Virus genome (UHGV): UHGV-0103780
Source of the DNA: a virus
DNA length: 49,301 nucleotides
Direction: 5' to 3' (one strand)
Part shown: piece after piece, positions 11,336-35,657 of the stretch
How the letters are laid out: each line of letters begins with the position of its first letter
How positions within the stretch are numbered: position 1 is the stretch's first letter
Made by a program: the position numbers and the translations under genes
Notes under the pieces: generated by a model
Database searches by the model: none
What the model saw: only the letters and a program-made list of their open reading frames with translations
What the model was told of the DNA's origin: nothing

Positions 11336-11520
11336 GTATTTTTAAGTCACGAATGCTATCTTTTCGCATCATATTGACCTTTTAATCGTTCAGGCTTATA
11401 GTTCCGCCGTCGTAGCAAATTCTGCGACCGGGTTTAGCAGCCTGAATGATTGTGCGGACAGCCGCAGATATCCGATATTGCGGTATTTTTGTGTCCGTAA
11501 AACCGCGTTACGCCCAAATT

Positions 11521-11600
11521 ATGGTGGGGCGTGATGGGGAGGCTTCGGCCTGCTGGTTTCACAATCGCCAGTCTGCTAACCCCGTCACGTCCTGCCACCT
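11521..11600 (+). ncRNA. c4: c4-like antisense immunity RNA (boundaries approximate)
   Basis: Contains CACAATC (11560-11566) and CTGCTAA (11573-11579), each complementary to paired sites TTAGCAG/GATTGTG upstream (11434-11454) and downstream (11603-11638, just 5' of icd). Confidence 0.5.
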
Positions 11601-11649
11601 GTTTAGCAGCGGGTAGCAGGTTGTTAAACCTGATTGTGAGGCCGTAACT

Positions 11650-15046: not shown

Positions 15047-15227
15047 TACAATCGTTGCGGGTGCTTGAGGCTATCTGCTTCAGGCATTACCCGAAAAGCA
15101 GATAGAAGAAAGCCCCAGATAACATTACGCGTCCTGCAAGACGCTTAACATTAATCTGAGGCCATATCTATGCTTAGCATACGTAGATTAGCCTCTTACC
15201 GACCAAAAGGTCAAGGAGAAGCAGGCT

Positions 15228-15383
15228 ATGAAGCAGCAAAAAGCGATGTTAATCGCTCTGATCGTCATCTGTTTAACCGTCATTGTGACGGCACTGGTAA
15301 CGAGGAAAGACCTCTGCGAGGTACGAATCCGAACCGGCCAGACGGAGGTCACTGTCTTCACAGCCTACGAATCTGAAAGGTAA
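15228..15383 (+). CDS. hok: Hok/Gef-family type I toxin, 51 aa
   Basis: Manual read MKQQKAMLIALIVICLTVIVTALVTRKDLCEVRIRTGQTEVTVFTAYESER, a close match to recalled Hok/Gef sequences; overlapped by the mok-like frame 15170..15376 from the ORF track. Confidence 0.8.
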   Translation: MKQQKAMLIALIVICLTVIVTALVTRKDLCEVRIRTGQTEVTVFTAYESER

Positions 15384-28317: not shown

Positions 28318-29215
28318 GCACTGGAAAAACATTACTATTTATAAACTTTCTCGTGAGGCGGATCTGACCGACTTAGAAGATAAAAAGAAAATGATCCTTT
28401 TCACGCCATGCGGTAGTCAGGATATGGCCAAGTTCGGTTTTGTATCTCCATTTGGTGATAATTCCGAAGTTATCGCTATGCATGGAAATGGTTTTATCCT
28501 TGTTGAAGCAAAGCGCGAAACAAAAATTCTTCCCCCGCCGGTTATCCAGCGAGCTATTCAAGAAAAAATTGAAAAACTTGAGCAAGAACAAGCGCGTAAA
28601 CTGAAGAAAACAGAGAAGGACTCCCTGAAAGACGAAGTTCTGCATTCTCTTCTGCCACGGGCTTTTTCAAAGTTTTCTGTTATCCAGGCGATCTACGACG
28701 GTTCAACTAAACGTATCTATATCAATGCCAGCGCGCGGCAGGCAGAGGATATGCTCGCGCTTATGCGTAAGTCTCTGGGTTCTCTTCCTGTTGTTCCCCT
28801 GAGTGTTGAAAATCCCATTGAATTAACGCTGACCGACTGGGTACGTGATGGTAGTGCTCCACAGGGATTTCAAATGGGGGATGCGGCAGAACTTAAGGCA
28901 GTGCTTGAGGATGGCGGTATTGCCCGGGTGAAAAAGCAGGATTTGGGAAGCGATGAAATTTCCACACACCTGGAAGCTGGCAAGCTCGTCACTAAGTTGG
29001 CACTCGACTGGCAGAACCGCATTAAATTTACACTGGACCATAACTTCAGCCTTACCAGCGTCAAATTTGCGGATGAATTGCTTGAGCAGAACTCTGATAT
29101 TGATAGTGAAGATGTTGCGCAGCGACTGGACGCAGATTTCTTCCTGTTGACCAGTGAAATTTCGTGCCTGGTTGATGCTCTGGTAAATGCCCTTGGTGGA
29201 GAGGCTAAGCAGTGA
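28310..29215 (+). CDS. hrdC: RdgC-like recombination-associated protein, about 301 aa
   Basis: Begins [16 protein letters not shown]..., close to the recalled RdgC N-terminus; start moved to the internal Met at 28310; stop overlaps the dmt start. Confidence 0.7.
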
Positions 29216-31476
29216 AAGAGCTGTGCTATGGATCTGTTTGCAGTGGAATTGAAGCCGCGAGTATTGCCTGGGAACCGTTGGGTATGCGTCCGGTGTGGTT
29301 TGCTGAAATCGAGTCTTTTCCATCTGCCGTTCTTGCGCACCGCTGGCCCCATGTCGCCAACCTTGGCGACATGACAAAACTTGCCAAAAAAGTCCTGGCT
29401 GGGGAAATCGAATCCCCTGATGTGCTCGTCGGGGGTACGCCTTGTCAGGCATTCAGTATCGCGGGCTTACGTGGTGGGCTTGATGATGAACGCGGCGCGC
29501 TAACTTTGAAGTATGTGGAGCTTGCAAATGCAATTGACGACAAACGGTCTGAGTCCTTCCTCAAACCGACAGTTATCGTCTGGGAAAATGTCCCAGGAGT
29601 CCTGTCATCGGCAGATAACGCCTTCGGATGTTTCCTTGCCGGATTGGCTGGAGAAGATGCGCCATTTGAACCAGGTGATCGACCTGAATCAGGAAAAAGT
29701 AACGCGTTCTGGCGGTGGGATGGCAAAACCGGTTGCCATGCTCCAAAGTGGCCGCAGTGTGGTTGTATTTATGGACCGCAGCGAAAGGTGGCCTGGAGAA
29801 TCCTTGATGCCCAATACTTCGGAGTGGCACAACGACGCCGACGCGTGTTTGTTGTCGCAAGTGCTCGAACAGACCTCGATCCCGCAACGGTACTTTTTGA
29901 GTTCAAAGGCGTGCGCCGGAATATTGCGCCGAGCCGAAAAAAGAAGGAAATCGCTTCCGCCATTATTGCAAATGGCGCTGCAATCAGTGGCGAAAGCCTA
30001 AATCCATGCCTACACGCTGACATGCCACCCGGTATGAAATCGACGAAAGCCGTAAACGCTTTCAGGATGGCAGCATTTGGGGAATATATTGACGATGAAA
30101 CCGCATCGACAGTAAAGGCAAGAGATTTTAAAGATGCCACTGACCTTGCCGTTTTTAGCAGCACAGGAGCAGGTTTTTGGTCAGAAGGGCATGGTACATT
30201 GCGGGCACGTGAGCAAGAAAGCCATGAGCATCTTGTTACATTGGCTTTTCCTGAGCGTATGAGCGGTACACAACATGCTGCAACTAAGAATACTTCACCA
30301 TCTCTAATGGCTAAAAATCCAACAGCTGTTTGCTATGAAGTAAGAAACGCAGAAGTAGCTGTCCGCCGTCTTACCCCTGTCGAATGTGAAAGGCTGCAAG
30401 GTTTTCCTGATGGGCATACGTTGATCCCGACGGAAAAGCGTAAAAAAGTTAATTCAGATGAACTGGCATATCTTCGCAATCACTATCCAGATTTAAGCGA
30501 AGAAGAGGCCGCGATGCTTGCAGCTGACGGACCGCGTTACAAAGCGATCGGCAATAGTATGGCAATACCAGTAATGCGCTGGATTGGCGATCGGATTACT
30601 AAGTCCGTATGTCGGCAGAAAGAAGGAAGTGAAACAAAAGAGCGAAAAGTTAAACCAGCGGCAGAATTCGAACGGTCCATATTCAAATGGGCTGGTGGAA
30701 AATTTGGTGTTCTGGAACAAATCTTTCGCTATTTGCCAGAAGGGAAGCGCCTGATTGAACCTTTCGTTGGTGGCGGAGCTGTCTTCATGAATGCCGGATA
30801 CCAGGAAAATCTGCTAAATGATGTGAATGCTGACCTGATTAACTTTTACAAGACTCTGCAACGCGAGGCGCATTCACTTATCACTCTGGCACATCGTTTC
30901 TTCCAGGACTACAACACACAGGAAGGATACCTGGCAGTACGGAATGCGTTTAACAAACAAGTCTATGATGATTTACATCGCGCAGCGGCGTTTTTGTTCC
31001 TGAACCGACATTGTTTTAACGGATTGACGCGTTACAACCAGGCCGGTGAGTTCAATGTCGGTTATGGGAAGTATAAAACTCCGTATTTCCCATTACAGGA
31101 GATGGAAGCCTTCCTCGGTGCGGAAGGGCGGTCTGAGTTTGTATGCGGTGATTTTGCAGCGGTGATTGAAGCTGCCGGAGAAGGAGATGTCATCTTTTGC
31201 GATCCGCCGTATGAACCGCTTCCAAATACAGAGGGATTCACGAACTATTCCGGTCATGACTTTAAGTTTGAAGAGCAAAAACGCCTGGTGTCTCTGTTGA
31301 CGGATGCTCATCGTCGAGGTGCAAAGGTTCTCATTACTAACAGTGGCGCGCCAAACATCAGAGAGCTTTATCATGACAGTGGCTTCAGAGTGGAACCTCT
31401 TTTTGCCAGACGTTCTGTGTCTTGTAAGGGGGACACTCGAGGTGTAGCTCATGACGTTTTGGGTATATTGCTCTAA
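29212..31476 (+). CDS. dmt: bifunctional DNA methyltransferase: N-terminal C5-cytosine domain fused to C-terminal Dam-like N6-adenine domain, 754 aa
   Basis: C5 motifs [12 protein letters not shown] and ENVPG; adenine motifs KWAGGK and FCDPPY; size as recalled for P1 Dmt. Confidence 0.85.
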
Positions 31477-31483
31477 TAAATTT
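31467..31483 (+). promoter_or_regulatory. C1-repressor operator (ATTGCTCTAATAAATTT, perfect consensus)
   Basis: Overlaps the dmt stop codon and the -35 of TTGCTC-N17-TAATAT; extends into the palindrome CTAATAAATTTATTAG. Confidence 0.8.
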
Positions 31484-31657
31484 ATTAGTGTAATATCGCC
31501 TCAATGAATCGTGATTTATAGAGCGATTTAGCTGTTAGCCGCGACAGGCGCGGCGGTAAGCATGGCTGGGCCTAGTCCTCCCAGACAAACCACCGAGTTG
31601 CCAGGTTGACCATGCGCCTAAGTGGCAACTCCGAAGTGCGTTACGAGCTTCCAGTTT

Positions 31658-31685
31658 GCCCATCTTCGGGTGGGCGTTTTTTTTC
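31658..31685 (+). terminator. rho-independent terminator
   Basis: GCCCATC-ttcg-GGTGGGC followed by GTTTTTTTT. Confidence 0.7.
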
Positions 31686-32149
31686 AGGGTTTTCGTCATG
31701 GTTAGCGACTTTGCGGCGGTTTAGAAACTGACCATTAAAGTAAATGCAAACGATGATCTGATGATGGTAGCGGCCTAAGAAGCCAGATGCCACGGGGTAT
31801 GAGTCGTCCCCCGTCAAAAAATCGACCGCAGAGTGTCCCCGTCTGTGTATTAGGGAACGGGGAGGCACAACAGGTAAGGGCGCTGGTGTGATTAACCAGA
31901 TGAACGAGAAGGGGCCATCTGTTGGTCAGCGTCCTTTCCTGTTGCGTTTTCTTTTCAGCGTAACAGCGGTGCTTAACAGCACTTTGGGTACAGTTCCACG
32001 AATTTACGGGTATATCCCGTCATGCTGAAAGCGCTAATCACGCTGGAAGCCAGGGTTGTGCATCCCCTGTTACCGAATTGCAGCCAGGGCGCGGTGCGCC
32101 GAAAAGCATACGGAGGTGGAAGCCCTCGCCGGAGACGTACCCGGCAAGT

Positions 32150-32225
32150 GATGGTGTAGCTCAGCGGTTAGAGCGGTTGACTGTTAATCAACGGGTCGAT
32201 GGTTCAAATCCATCCACCATCGCCA
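32150..32225 (+). tRNA. tRNA-Asn (anticodon GTT)
   Basis: Manual cloverleaf: acceptor GATGGTG/CACCATC, anticodon loop CTGTTAA, T-loop TTCAAAT, encoded CCA; 76 nt. Confidence 0.85.
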
Positions 32226-32227
32226 AT

Positions 32228-32303
32228 GCCGGTTTAGCTCAGTTGGTAGAGCGCCTGCCTTGTAAGCAGGATGTCAGCGGTTCGAGTCCGTTAATCGGCA
32301 CCA
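32228..32303 (+). tRNA. tRNA-Thr (anticodon TGT)
   Basis: Manual cloverleaf: acceptor GCCGGTT/AATCGGC, anticodon loop CTTGTAA, T-loop TTCGAGT, encoded CCA; starts 2 nt after tRNA-Asn. Confidence 0.85.
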
Positions 32304-32304
32304 G

Positions 32305-33105
32305 CACAACAGGTAAGGGTATTTTGCGACGTCGGAGATCGCCGAGCTTGGCAGAGGGTTCGAATCCCTACGAAGTACCCTTACCGTTGTGATGAATGCG
32401 CAGGCTGATGCGCGAAAGACATTGCAGCTATTGCGGAAAAGAGCTGTTCGGCGGGGCAATTAAACGCCCGTGAGAGTCTGAAATAACCGCAAGCCGGAGA
32501 TCAGCACCGGTCATCACAACACAACAGGTAAGGGCATTCTCCCTTATGGGGCTTGGCTTAAATGCATCGAGTGCTCTTACCGTTGTGATGAAGTGCAGCT
32601 CTTTGAAGCAACCAGAAGATAAGCATCTGGCTTCACAACATAAACCGCAGGAACGACCAATAAACGGTAGTCCGTATGGAGAACACCCCGTTGAGGAAGA
32701 GGCCTGGCCGGAACCGTAACCGGCACTACAACGTTGAGAACACTGGCGTAACGGGGTCATATCCCAATCTACGAATAAATGTTGCGTTGCAGCGTGACAA
32801 CCAGTGTTCTCAACATTGTGGTGAATGCACAGGCTGATGTGCCGCAACTACAGTAGTGCGCGCTTTGCGGGGCTTGCTACAACCCTGTGTCGGAGTTCAG
32901 CACCGACCATCACAGTTTGATTCTCTGGCATGAGCATAACGCTGAAATAAGTCCAGTCTGGTGCGGCCCGATCACCCGCCGTTAGCTCCACGAAACGGAG
33001 CACGTAACAGGTAAGAGCATTCTCCTGTAACGGGTTCATATCCCAATCTACAGGTCCACCAGGAATGCTCTTTCCGTTGCGGTGAATGCGGCTAAGCGCA
33101 CGCGG
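32305..33105 (+). repeat. array of four related structured repeat units (long inverted arms around a tRNA T-arm-like hairpin)
   Basis: Copies at about 32305-32412, 32511-32600, 32733-32850, 33005-33105; examples CACAACAGGTAAGGGTA...GGGTTCGAATCCC...TACCCTTACCGTTGTG and a perfect 14-bp inverted repeat GTTGAGAACACTGG/CCAGTGTTCTCAAC. No convincing ORF. Confidence 0.6.
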
Positions 33106-33230
33106 GGAAATGGTTATATCTGTCCATTATTTCTCCTTATTTCCCCGTCCATGGTGGATAACCAGCCAAAGGACACCGGGAAGCACCCGGCACCGCAACC
33201 TTATTTCCCAACCAGTAATGAGGTTAATAA

Positions 33231-33656
33231 ATGCTCGGCATTCTCAAAAAGAAATTCCGCAAAGCGGCTGGCGGAGTCAAGAAGATGGAAAACCGTGATG
33301 CGGTGGAAGCGACTGTCTGGGGCGCATATTCCATTGCATACTCTGACGGCACCTGCGATGCGAAAGAAATTGCAGTGTTGGAAAAAACCATTGCAGCACT
33401 TCCTGCCTTTGCGCCGTTCTCCGGTGAAATTGCCCAGATGAGCGCCAATATTCGCGCTCAATATGAAGCCTCGCCGCGCCGAGCGAATGCCCAGGCTTTA
33501 CGTGAACTGGCTGACGTGTCTGGAACTAATGATGCGGTAGATGTTCTGTGCCTATGCATTGATATTGCTGACCAGGATGGCATTGGGGCAGAAGAGCAGG
33601 AGCAATTGAAGAAAATTGCCCAGGCTCTTCAATTGCCACTGGAACAGTATATCTGA
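33231..33656 (+). CDS. TerB-like domain protein, 141 aa (start may be the internal Met at 33285)
   Basis: Two A-x-(S/A)-DG-x5-E-x3-L-like motifs (AYSDGTCDAKEIAVL; IADQDGIGAEEQEQL) resembling the TerB fold. Confidence 0.5.
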   Translation: MLGILKKKFRKAAGGVKKMENRDAVEATVWGAYSIAYSDGTCDAKEIAVLEKTIAALPAFAPFSGEIAQMSANIRAQYEASPRRANAQALRELADVSGTNDAVDVLCLCIDIADQDGIGAEEQEQLKKIAQALQLPLEQYI

Positions 33657-33820
33657 TGGTTATAAAAGCACGTCTAATTCTGGCTTTGGTTTTTCTCGTG
33701 CTATCTGTGCTGGTGGATTTCACCAGCACAATCCTGTCGGTTTTATCCGACGGGGCGTTGGTAGCAGTAGCTGTAACATTGGTATGGCCGATATTAAAAA
33801 CAGCTTCTAAGGATCAGTGA
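33656..33820 (+). CDS. small membrane protein, 54 aa
   Basis: Manual read MVIKARLILALVFLVLSVLVDFTSTILSVLSDGALVAVAVTLVWPILKTASKDQ; start overlaps the TerB-like stop (TGATG). Confidence 0.35.
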   Translation: MVIKARLILALVFLVLSVLVDFTSTILSVLSDGALVAVAVTLVWPILKTASKDQ

Positions 33821-33927
33821 TGGGCTTCTGGGATTTTGCTGACAAGCATCCAATTGTTCTCGTTGTCATTGCTGGCATAGTTGTAGGCGGTATTGCTGGC
33901 GTCATAGAAGCACTCAGGAAACAGTAA
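33820..33927 (+). CDS. small single-TM peptide, 35 aa
   Basis: Manual read MGFWDFADKHPIVLVVIAGIVVGGIAGVIEALRKQ; start overlaps the previous stop (TGATG); ends 3 nt before tRNA-Ile. Confidence 0.35.
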   Translation: MGFWDFADKHPIVLVVIAGIVVGGIAGVIEALRKQ

Positions 33928-33930
33928 TCC

Positions 33931-34006
33931 GGCCCTTTAGCTCAGTGGTTAGAGCTGGCGACTCATAATCGCACGGTCACCGGTTCAAGTCCGGTAGGGG
34001 CCACCA
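33931..34006 (+). tRNA. tRNA with CAT anticodon, tRNA-Ile2 (lysidine) type
   Basis: Manual cloverleaf: acceptor GGCCCTT/AGGGGCC, anticodon loop CTCATAA, T-loop TTCAAGT, encoded CCA; close to E. coli tRNA-Ile2 as recalled. Confidence 0.8.
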
Positions 34007-34286
34007 TATTTGGTTGTAACACGGCGTCTGGCACATGCGTCGTTAGCGGTCTGGTGACGTTAAAAGGGGGGAACCTTGCCCCTAGCTCAGGCAACGAACC
34101 AGGTAGCCGGAATGTGCAAGCCACCGTTTGTTGTTTCTCGGGTAAAGGGATTCACCATCCTGGCGATTCGGTGTGACAGCCGGGAAGAGTCCGGCGCATT
34201 AATCCTGATTTTCTGGTGATGACTCATATCGTTAGGAGTGATTTGAGTATGCCGATTATATCTGACATTCAGCACGCCTGGGTGGA

Positions 34287-35657
34287 GTGCTAATGTCTGC
34301 ATCCCCTCTTGAATCCATGCCAAATTCCCTTAGTGCAGAACAAGCTGTACTTGGTGGCTTAATGCTTGATAACTGCCGCTGGGATGAAGTTGCAGATCGT
34401 ATAGTTGCTGATGATTTTTATACCAGTGCTCATCGTGAAATTTTCAGTGAGATGGAGAGGTTATTAAGTCATGGCAAACCGATTGATTTGATAACACTTG
34501 CTGAAGCACTTGAACAGAACGGTAAATTAGAACGCGCCGGTGGTTTTGCGTACCTTGCGGAGATGTCAAAGAACACGCCCAGCGCGGCAAATATTTGTGC
34601 TTATGCGGATATCGTTCGTGAACGCGCGGTTGTTCGTGAAATGATTTCCGTCGCAAATGAAATAGCCGAAGCTGGATATGCGCAGGATGGCAGGGGCAGC
34701 AATGAATTGCTGGATATGGCCGAGCGCCGCGTTTTTGAAATAGCTGAAAAACGACAAAAGAGCGGTAGTGGTCCAAAAGATATCGCCAGCATTCTCGATG
34801 CAACGGTATCTCGCATAGAAGAGTTGTTTCAGCGACCACATGATGGTGTAACGGGGCTTGATACGGGATTTACCGATCTCAATAAGAAGACGGCAGGGCT
34901 TCAGCCGTCCGATCTCATCATTGTCGCCGCCCGCCCATCTATGGGGAAGACCACGTTTGCGATGAATCTCGTCGAAAATGCTGCAGTTCGTAACGATAAG
35001 CCCGTATTGGTTTTTAGCCTTGAGATGCCGAGCCACCAGCTGATGATGCGCTCACTGGCTTCTCTTGCACGCGTTGATCAGACTCGTATTAGAACGGGGC
35101 AACTTAACGACGATGATTGGGCGCGGGTTTCTGGCGCAATGGGGATTCTGTTGGACAAGCAGAATATTTTTATTGATGACTCAAGCGCCCTGACACCTAC
35201 AGAGCTTCGTTCCCGCGCTCGTCGTGTTTATAAAGAAAATGGTGGTTTGAGCATGATTATGATCGACTACCTGCAACTTATGCGCGTCCCCGAGCTGCAA
35301 GATAACCGAACGCTGGAAATTGCCGAGATTTCTCGCTCACTGAAGGCGTTGGCGAAGGAATTACAAGTACCGGTGGTGGCATTGTCACAACTTAATCGAT
35401 CGCTTGAACAGCGTGCGGACAAACGACCGGTAAATTCAGATTTACGTGAATCAGGAGCAATTGAGCAGGACGCAGACCTGATTATGTTTCTGTATCGCGA
35501 CGAAGTTTATCACCCGGATAGCGAAATGAAGGGCATTGCCGAGGTAATTATCGGAAAGCAACGAAATGGCCCAATTGGCACGGTGAGATTGGCTTTTAAC
35601 GGCCAATACTCACGGTTTGATAACTATGCCGGTGCTGACTGGCAAGAGGATTATTAA
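34287..35657 (+). CDS. ban: DnaB-family replicative helicase (P1 Ban-like), 456 aa
   Basis: Walker A ARPSMGKTTFAMNL; near-colinear match to E. coli DnaB along the whole length as recalled; downstream of a C1 operator and phage tRNAs. Confidence 0.9.
   Translation: MLMSASPLESMPNSLSAEQAVLGGLMLDNCRWDEVADRIVADDFYTSAHREIFSEMERLLSHGKPIDLITLAEALEQNGKLERAGGFAYLAEMSKNTPSAANICAYADIVRERAVVREMISVANEIAEAGYAQDGRGSNELLDMAERRVFEIAEKRQKSGSGPKDIASILDATVSRIEELFQRPHDGVTGLDTGFTDLNKKTAGLQPSDLIIVAARPSMGKTTFAMNLVENAAVRNDKPVLVFSLEMPSHQLMMRSLASLARVDQTRIRTGQLNDDDWARVSGAMGILLDKQNIFIDDSSALTPTELRSRARRVYKENGGLSMIMIDYLQLMRVPELQDNRTLEIAEISRSLKALAKELQVPVVALSQLNRSLEQRADKRPVNSDLRESGAIEQDADLIMFLYRDEVYHPDSEMKGIAEVIIGKQRNGPIGTVRLAFNGQYSRFDNYAGADWQEDY

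Follow-up and report, generated by a model that had tools for sequence, protein, structure and literature searches.

How the tRNAs and the DnaB-type helicase Ban of P1-type phages are expressed through a strong terminator and about 1.7 kb of untranslated RNA is a puzzle, and the leader that poses it occupies positions 31484-31685 of virus genome UHGV-0103780 (the window, a stretch of 49,301 nt). Judged from its sequence, the window is a P1-type phage: about 1.1 kb around the leader shares 99.9% identity with phage RCS47 and 99.5% with P1, and P7, SJ46 and D6 are more distant relatives. The reading favoured here, with a probability of roughly 0.55, is that the leader is controlled by the repressor C1, yields a terminated RNA of about 180 nt, and attenuates entry into an array of non-coding RNAs (ncRNAs), the tRNAs and ban. 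A preliminary description of the leader had offered a small RNA (sRNA) or an attenuating leader as alternatives; this is partly supported, as both fit the evidence and are probably both true rather than exclusive.

Much of this anatomy has been annotated in P1 before. The P1 record (GenBank AF234172) already marks Obanab (formerly Op72ab), P1ban, P2ban and a “dicF-like region” here, followed 3′ of the leader by tRNA-Asn, tRNA-Thr, the oppositely oriented plp and upl, tciABC, a third tRNA and ban. The P7 record carries the same operator with the remark that it controls the tRNAs. The operator, the promoter and the “dicF-like region” are therefore not new. What is added is the homology of the leader to a structured element that precedes DicF in lambdoid prophages, the read-through puzzle itself, and an RNA resembling transfer-messenger RNA (tmRNA) behind the terminator in a modular ncRNA array. 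The control features of the leader are as follows.

31467..31483, plus strand: C1 operator Obana (Op72a), a perfect 17-mer ATTGCTCTAATAAATTT with 0 mismatches, annotated in P1 and P7
31478..31494, minus strand: C1 operator Obanb (Op72b), 2 mismatches, overlapping Obana, annotated in P1
31468..31496, plus strand: promoter P1ban, with -35 TTGCTC (31468-31473), a 17-nt spacer and -10 TAATAT (31491-31496), as in the P1 annotation
31657..31684, plus strand: intrinsic terminator, an 8-bp stem with a UUCG loop (31657-31676) followed by U8 (31677-31684)

The 17-mer, which we take to be the C1 operator consensus, has the same sequence as the annotated Obana site and begins 17 nt upstream of 31484, where the interval given in the preliminary description starts. 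As that description had claimed, a perfect operator overlaps TTGCTC-N17-TAATAT, and this hexamer pair coincides with the annotated “sigma 70 promoter P1ban” of P1. The arrangement of a 17-bp asymmetric operator overlapping a sigma-70 promoter is that of Op72ab/Pban and is co-linear with the P1 and P7 annotations. A generic sigma-70 scan did not call P1ban, because only 7 of its 12 consensus positions match. Repression of Pban by C1 is a likely function taken over from the deposited P1 annotation, and transcription is predicted to start near 31503. Three D6-type and hybrid P1-like contigs (L024, L038 and L096) lack a C1 operator in the 700 nt before the terminator, where a long succession of other structured modules stands instead; the array and its control therefore vary among P1-like phages.

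The strong terminator that had been claimed at the end of the leader combines a GC-rich hairpin with an immediate U-tract and folds at -12.8 kcal/mol (z = -4.3), with 0 of 200 shuffled sequences folding as well. All P1-type phages keep it, even D6-type phages without the upstream element, and its U-tract measures 6-8 across P1, P7, plasmid prophages and those of the D6 type. The window has 8 U, some viral contigs have 7, and P1, P7 and three contigs of P1-type plasmids or viruses have 6; the length of this homopolymer could tune termination. The terminator does stand upstream of the tRNAs, as had been stated, but not directly before them: the next 465 nt are conserved non-coding RNA, and tRNA-Asn starts only at 32150. 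Similarly, the “tRNA-ban operon” that had been placed downstream is there in the sense that the tRNAs and ban are present, but a tmRNA-like RNA and the ncRNA cassette array also intervene. No sigma-70 consensus site was found by the generic scan in 31000-34400, and no plus-strand promoter is annotated in the P1 record between Pban and ban. With no consensus-type promoter from the terminator to ban, the tRNAs and ban should depend on read-through.

Between promoter and terminator, the leader is largely taken up by a structured element, here called pre-DicF, which is accompanied by two small hairpins.

31527..31654, plus strand: pre-DicF element, consisting of a closing helix, H1, a junction helix, H2 and H3, from covariance model R1, RNAalifold, pair counts and compensatory changes
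31538-31554, plus strand: H1, GCCGCG-ACAGG-CGCGGC
31554-31557 with 31592-31595, plus strand: junction helix, CGGU/ACCG
31566-31584, plus strand: H2, CUGGG...CCCAG
31597-31629, plus strand: H3, GUUGCCA...UGGCAAC, with an invariant 19-nt loop
31560..31615, plus strand: pseudoknot, GCAUGG (31560-31565) with CCAUGC (31610-31615) in the H3 loop
31507..31528, plus strand: small 5′-proximal hairpin, AAUCG...CGAUU, from the minimum-free-energy fold and kept in P1, P7 and an E. albertii plasmid
31633..31651, plus strand: weak P1-specific hairpin, GAAG...CUUC, where lambdoid phages have DicF-type sRNAs

The three hairpins named in the preliminary description are present as described (H1, H2 and H3), and they are parts of one conserved element that also occurs at the dicF locus of lambdoid prophages, a relation that had been overlooked. 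The element is about 125 nt in size, with four or five helices and a pseudoknot; the exact pairs of the closing helix are uncertain in P1. A sensitive search with 31495-31690 found the full-length leader only in P1-type phages; for its centre (31539-31633), matches of about 76% identity came from about 43 lambdoid phages. In phage mEp460, the match immediately precedes a DicF confirmed by Rfam (76.7 bits) as well as dicB. In IMG/VR, a pattern scan yielded at least 120 further element loci, from which 69 distinct element sequences were obtained (66 over the core region), and 44 of these were used for RNAalifold and pair statistics.

RNAalifold independently predicts the closing helix K, H1, the junction helix J, H2 and H3 from these 44 sequences. 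When the 6-bp pseudoknot is added to the element, 97.6% of cells are paired as against 29-52% with slid partners, and cells changed on both sides number 23 as against 4.6 in shuffles. The pseudoknot is 100% paired in all 44, its pair 37:95 being UA in 36, CG in 7 and UG in 1; that of P7 (GUAUGG/CCAUAC) has the U:A form of this variable pair. The more divergent P1-type plasmids supply compensation that is independent of this set: H3 of an E. fergusonii plasmid reads GUGAUCA/UGAUCGC where P1 has GUUGCCA/UGGCAAC, which amounts to three compensated pairs, and its 19-nt loop is invariant throughout the compared sequences (GGUUGACCAURCGCYURAG). The check that had been proposed, structure prediction and conservation in related genomes, thus gave a conserved multi-helix fold with compensatory changes. 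H1, the junction helix, H2, H3 with its loop, and the 6-bp pseudoknot are all found in the window, and the element is 94-100% conserved among P1-type phages; the small AAUCG...CGAUU hairpin occurs only in P1-type leaders.

Covariance model R1 scores 104 bits at 31527-31654 of the window and 153.7 bits in the Qin prophage of E. coli K-12 (1649250-1649375), where the copy falls within the 340 nt, free of annotation, that separate ydfC from dicF, its end being 6 nt short of mature DicF. In lambdoid prophages, the element is a cargo inside a GUUGUGG/CCACAAC helix, with AGUGCUCUCUUC before the helix. The pre-DicF element has no Rfam entry, Rfam at its gathering thresholds gave 0 matches in 31484-32149, and literature searches turned up no account of the element or of the tmRNA-like RNA; a preprint on the P1vir transcriptome has no leader-level data. 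A protein-coding reading of the leader was rejected: the open reading frames (ORFs) at 31535-31699 (minus), 31606-31731 (plus) and 31641-31868 (minus) match nothing in Pfam or PHROG, and conservation between P1 and mEp460 is lacking for the short ORFs on the plus strand of the leader.

These features suggest the following course of events. Once C1 is inactivated, E. coli RNA polymerase would start near 31503, the nascent RNA would fold into the element of about 125 nt (H1-H3, the junction helix and the loop-to-linker pseudoknot), and the polymerase would next meet a canonical intrinsic terminator. Most complexes would stop at 31684 and release a predicted structured RNA of about 182 nt (31503-31684), the counterpart of an element-plus-DicF unit without the DicF seed. 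The remaining complexes would read through into the tmRNA-like RNA, the sRNA-like cassettes, tRNA-Asn, tRNA-Thr, tciABC, the third tRNA and ban. As an attenuator, the leader would set the share of Pban output that reaches the downstream RNAs and ban. The element may promote read-through in the manner of the HK022 put RNA, direct the processing of the 180-nt RNA, or act on its own. In bac mutants, ban is expressed from the Op72 promoter region.

Several observations weigh against this reading. An 8-bp GC stem followed by U8 should terminate efficiently, which would leave appreciable read-through unexplained. A non-consensus promoter 3′ of the terminator is possible, the scan being blind to weak promoters such as P1ban itself. 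The covariation represents few independent events among closely related sequences (the effective sequence number of R1 is 1.52), and the fold energy of the leader is unexceptional, no better than that of shuffles (z = -1.76 for the whole leader and z = -0.67 for 31531-31655); the hairpins are judged to be real because of conservation and covariation, not thermodynamics. Finally, D6-type relatives of P1 keep the terminator and the tmRNA-like core while Op72 and the element are both absent, their upstream place being taken by more than 700 nt of other modules, and the element is therefore not obligatory for expressing the downstream RNAs.

The relation of the leader to DicF bears on the first rival explanation, in which a trans-acting sRNA of DicF type makes up the 3′ end of the leader (about 31634-31684), binds Hfq, is released by RNase E and represses ftsZ or other host mRNAs. 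The label “dicF-like” in the P1 annotation amounts to this reading. DicF itself is made from a longer precursor via RNase E. The proposed sRNA would have exactly the place that DicF has relative to the conserved element, directly 3′ of it and with a Rho-independent terminator and long U tail at its end, and the sRNA payloads that lambdoid relatives bear here are diverse, ranging from classic DicF and a cdtI type to a variant whose anti-ftsZ loop is a perfect CAGUUUCUCUCC. In P1, however, only about 20 nt follow the element before the terminator hairpin begins, and the P1-like variant L096 has a still shorter spacer. The Rfam DicF model (RF00039; threshold 48 bits) gave no match at E ≤ 10 in 31400-32320 of the window, as against 76.7 bits in the positive control mEp460. 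A loop complementary to the ftsZ ribosome-binding site (AGUUUnnCUCC type) is lacking in P1, which carries CCAGUUUGCCC, partly within the terminator stem. CAGUUU is partly buried in that stem, and of the ftsZ-pairing loop the anti-Shine-Dalgarno part, CUCC, is missing. The RNAduplex energy with the ftsZ initiation region (-26.8) is worse than the shuffled mean (-31.2), in a crude test that ignores intramolecular structure and in which true DicF is itself only marginally better than shuffles. A DicF-type sRNA at the end of the P1 leader is accordingly unlikely.

P1 thus has no DicF, and a bare terminator hairpin stands in its place. As P1 lacks DicF and has the element, its annotated “dicF-like region”, which corresponds to about 31591-31692 of the window (H3 and the terminator), reflects homology to the element preceding DicF and not to DicF. 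This corrects a 20-year-old annotation of P1, whose genome paper is reportedly that of Lobocka et al. from 2004; the element is also unannotated in E. coli K-12. The dicF loci of Qin and of mEp460, cdtI and Stx2c phages share with P1 the element (about 125 nt, about 76% identity) and the order of repressor-controlled early promoter, element, hairpin with terminator, and downstream genes that need read-through. P1 differs from them in having no DicF match in Rfam, no ftsZ seed, a degenerate closing helix and an extra small hairpin. Its repressor is C1 and not of the DicA or CI type, and its downstream cargo consists of the tmRNA-like RNA, tRNAs and a helicase, where the dicF locus has dicB.

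A second rival explanation addresses the read-through that the favoured reading leaves unexplained. Here, the element would be a cis-acting processive antiterminator or anti-pausing RNA, comparable to HK022 put, that modifies RNA polymerase to pass the next terminator, which is that of DicF in lambdoid phages and the one at 31657-31684 in P1. In 65 of 66 distinct copies (the exception being L173), the element stands shortly upstream of an intrinsic terminator that has to be passed for dicB or ban, and in P1 it is promoter-proximal. The H3 loop is invariant while its stem covaries, suggesting a binding surface. We know of no antiterminator for the ban operon, nor of an N- or Q-type factor in P1 that serves it. 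HK022 put has in common with the leader that it is a promoter-proximal structured nascent RNA of a phage early operon upstream of terminators; it is a factor-independent antiterminator of about 70 nt with two stem-loops (PMC9378689), and the element exceeds it in size and complexity, having about 125 nt, a pseudoknot and four or five helices. Homology to put was rejected, as R1 found nothing at E ≤ 1 in the HK022 immunity region (24000-31000), an interval presumed to hold putL and putR. D6-type phages, moreover, keep the terminator without the element. Antitermination by the element is hypothetical, and a put-like role is improbable on this balance.

More doubtful still is the proposal that the terminator is a mere terminator or insulator of the upstream uhr-hrdC-dmt operon and that the hairpins are a functionless remnant of a lambdoid sRNA locus. 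The dmt ORF does end at 31476 with no other terminator-like site before 31657, and P1 has lost the DicF payload. A remnant would hardly be 94-100% conserved in P1-type phages, with its pairing held by compensatory changes, and a promoter between a gene and its terminator would still produce a leader RNA.

If, as the favoured reading has it, some polymerases pass the terminator, the first RNA that they would reach is the tmRNA-like core, which is unannotated in the P1 record.

31687..31871, plus strand: tmRNA-like core without a tRNA-like domain, comprising a 5′ domain, tag frame, stop hairpin and two pseudoknots
31746-31778, plus strand: tag frame ANDDLMMVAA*, with its stop codon at 31776-31778
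about 31793-31826, plus strand: pseudoknot A, with covarying stems
about 31829-31863, plus strand: pseudoknot B, with covarying stems

An Rfam scan by E-value gave a sub-threshold match to tmRNA_permuted at 31672-31778, which is driven by the string ...UAAAU GCA AAC GAU GAU CUG AUG AUG GUA GCG GCC UAA. The match scores 26.1 bits in P1 and 22.9-33.4 bits in four other phage types, below the gathering threshold of 47; scores with alpha_tmRNA are 11.7-21.9 bits, below the threshold of 50. The four other phage types independently produce sub-threshold matches to the permuted, alpha, beta and standard tmRNA models. The segment 31688-31863 matches most of about 280 other, unrelated phage records and is unannotated wherever it is listed. 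The phages that carry it infect enterobacteria and include four unrelated groups: Ackermannviridae, N4-like phages (Schitoviridae), T1-like Drexlerviridae and the P1 type. A 28-base conserved core pattern occurs in at least 120 IMG/VR contigs, but among 185,579 bacterial genomes that represent species only 4 contain it. The core of some phages has its own promoter, TTGACA-N17-TAGATT, about 12 nt upstream, and in other phages the place of the P1 terminator is taken by the “H-stem” that flanks the core on its 5′ side.

Several features speak for selection on the tag frame. It is exactly 10 codons long in 129 of 129 copies and follows the pattern AN[DE][DEN]xx[LMK][AMVI][AV][AP]*; none of the 129 tags ends in LAA. 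Single-step differences between tags are synonymous in 13 of 22 cases as against 22.6% expected, and codon position 3 accounts for 15 of the 22. The GCA resume codon is preceded by an invariant U(-5)A(-4) in all copies, in agreement with the U85/A86 conserved in tmRNA (PMC2481249). In the window, too, the frame starts at GCA behind U(-5)A(-4), and its short tag has one of the expected endings, AA or VA. The last tag codons and the stop form a hairpin with the stop in its loop (in three tag types), and two H-type pseudoknots follow 3′ of the tag; both arrangements are present in the window. All four pseudoknot stems covary, one being CGGGG/CCCCG, CAAGG/CCUUG or GUGAGG/CCUCAU, a second CCGA/UCGG, CCAG/CUGG or GUCG/CGAC, and a third GCCCG/UGGGC, UCCCC/GGGGA or GGCGGGAGG/UCUCCCGCC. 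The second stems were assigned from complementarity within each sequence, where the shuffle control did not discriminate and covariation between clades provides the evidence; a constrained second RNAalifold pass returned nothing for them.

With tmRNA (SsrA), especially the coding piece of the permuted two-piece form, the core shares the GCA with U(-5)A(-4), a tag of 10 codons (AND...AA), the placing of the stop codon within a hairpin loop, pseudoknots 3′ of the tag and the sub-threshold matches to four models. It differs in having no tRNA-like domain nearby, only two pseudoknots, no LAA tag end and sub-threshold scores. ARAGORN called no tmRNA, either in the window or at 57 related loci, and a regular-expression search for a T-loop followed by an acceptor strand that complements GUUUUCG gave nothing. 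A pairing of the core's UUUGCGG with a downstream CCGCA is present in P1 but was dropped, being not conserved. With no detectable tRNA-like domain, which would comprise an acceptor stem with G3:U70, a T-arm and a 3′ CCA, the core fails membership of tmRNA on that defining half and is a tmRNA-like mRNA-domain RNA. It is the mirror image of the tmRNA forms noted to consist of a tRNA-like domain without a coding sequence (PMC11915505). The supplements of the tmRNA database paper contain no phage list.

The weakest rival explanation, in which the 180-nt RNA would supply the acceptor (tRNA-like) piece, and the core the coding piece, of a two-piece tmRNA, can point to the order of the two pieces (which recalls permuted tmRNA genes), to the permuted models as the core's best Rfam resemblance and to an ACCACC string at 31590-31595, but it is effectively refuted by the lack of a T-arm, a G3:U70 acceptor stem, an ARAGORN call and any Rfam tmRNA or tRNA match on 31503-31655, and by the occurrence of the element in lambdoid prophages without the core and its absence from most core-bearing phages.

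From Pban to tciA, over roughly 1.7 kb, ncRNA cassettes form a dense array; the following features lie behind the core.

31873..32149, plus strand: cassette stem GGUAAGGGCGCUGG (31873-31886) with UCAGCGUCCUUUCC (31926-31939), then UGUUGCG/CGUAACA
within 31873..32149 and up to tRNA-Asn, plus strand: structured spacer specific to P1 and D6
32150..32303, plus strand: tRNA-Asn(GUU) and tRNA-Thr(UGU)
32304..33199, plus strand: continuation of the ncRNA array after tRNA-Thr, cargos between conserved flanking segments
32312-32385, plus strand: tRNA-like cargo with a T-arm
starts about 32386 and about 32815, plus strand: STnc100/PasD-like cargos, read by eye and without Rfam match
33076-33199, plus strand: cargo with a sub-threshold Rfam STnc100 match

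Many cores are flanked by stems of the form GGUAAGAGCAUUG[insert]CAGUGCUCUUUCC and then by stems of the form GUUGUGG[insert]CCACAAC. GGUAAGAGCAUUG and CAGUGCUCUUUCC are near-complements whose G:U pairs are valid only on this strand, and the cargos are enclosed by helices of about 13-20 bp. The same syntax, CCACAAC-A-GGUAAGAGCAUUG and CAGUGCUCUUUCC-GUUGUGG around variable cargos, is seen in the window at 31873-31939, 32304-32385, 32519-32581 and 33004-33075, and in loci L010, L012, L030, L044 and others. The flank CAGUGCUCUUUCC-GUUGUGG resembles the boxA/boxC of rrn leaders, which in rrnB reads CACUGCUCUUUAACAA...UGUGUGGG (L251, 163-200). Cargos inside helices of about 13-20 bp, within a long untranslated transcript that would need protection from Rho, are also shared with the processing stems of rRNA operons. 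The first P1 cassette differs from the rrn leader in having no good boxA-like segment, and enrichment of the boxA core within the window is not significant (8 matches as against 3.9 expected, with 5 of 100 shuffles reaching 8). By analogy, the boxA/boxC-like flank suggests Nus-dependent protection from Rho; boxA-protected CRISPR arrays are a comparable case.

Taken together, the core and the cassettes allow a joint reading, which is tentative and which we hold to be somewhat short of an even chance. In this reading, the core would represent an undescribed, terminator-gated class of phage RNA, derived from tmRNA and reduced to a tag template, within a boxA-flanked cassette system. Its tags (ANDDLMMVAA, ANDDVVLMAA or ANEEMYLAVA, none ending in LAA) might reprogramme trans-translation, either with a separate tRNA-like piece or with the host tmRNA machinery, joined through the complementary cassette flanks. 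Alternatively, the RNA might be a decoy for SmpB, S1 or RNase R. In P1, it would be deployed only after C1 inactivation and terminator read-through, and the dicF-associated element and the tmRNA-like RNA would be cargos of one modular system of temperate and virulent phages. If the tags are translated, phages would specify their own trans-translation tags, a new manipulation of host ribosome rescue and proteolysis, and P1 would be an easy test system for tag function.

The tRNA-like cargo at 32312-32385 has a 13-bp extended acceptor-like stem, a small hairpin and the T-arm AGAGGGUUCGAAUCCCUAC, and is called by neither ARAGORN nor Rfam. It carries A3:U70 and U4:G69, not the G3:U70 of alanine tRNA, and recurs with a covarying stem in L012 and L030. 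As a universal partner of the core it was rejected, the two co-occurring in only 35 of 129 loci under a strict pattern. Three cargos begin with GGUGAAUGCG (32386-32520, about 32815-32915 and 33076-33199), and the STnc100 match in the last of these, at 33078-33197, reaches 39.2 bits (E = 7.8e-7), below the gathering threshold of 47. A related sequence is found 3′ of dicF in K-12 Qin (L247, about 1150-1290). STnc100 and PasD have been reported as related prophage sRNAs (bioRxiv 10.64898/2026.05.13.724894). The likeness to them concerns these downstream cargos, outside 31484-31685.

The P1 genes plp, which overlaps tRNA-Thr, and upl run antisense within the array (window 32274-33039, minus strand), and both are probably mis-annotations. 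The plp frame is open for only 61 aa in the window as against 125 aa in P1, and plp is for this reason probably not a gene. At 32713-32833, a long and nearly perfect hairpin (about 19 bp, loop of about 50 nt) gives spurious matches to microRNA families on both strands. At 33931-34006, ARAGORN calls a tRNA-Met(CAU), which the P1 record has as tRNA-Ile2 (ileX-like, lysidine-dependent). A 5.9-kb contig binned to a “Bacillota bacterium” metagenome-assembled genome (locus L129) bears the core motif and the P1 leader, for which the model scores it just as it does the window; this is probably a P1-like contig that was mis-binned or is a contaminant. Elsewhere in the window, Rfam matches above threshold comprise the C4 antisense RNA with its a1/b1 targets (immI region) and the sok antitoxin RNA (11396-11448, 11517-11602, 15059-15233).

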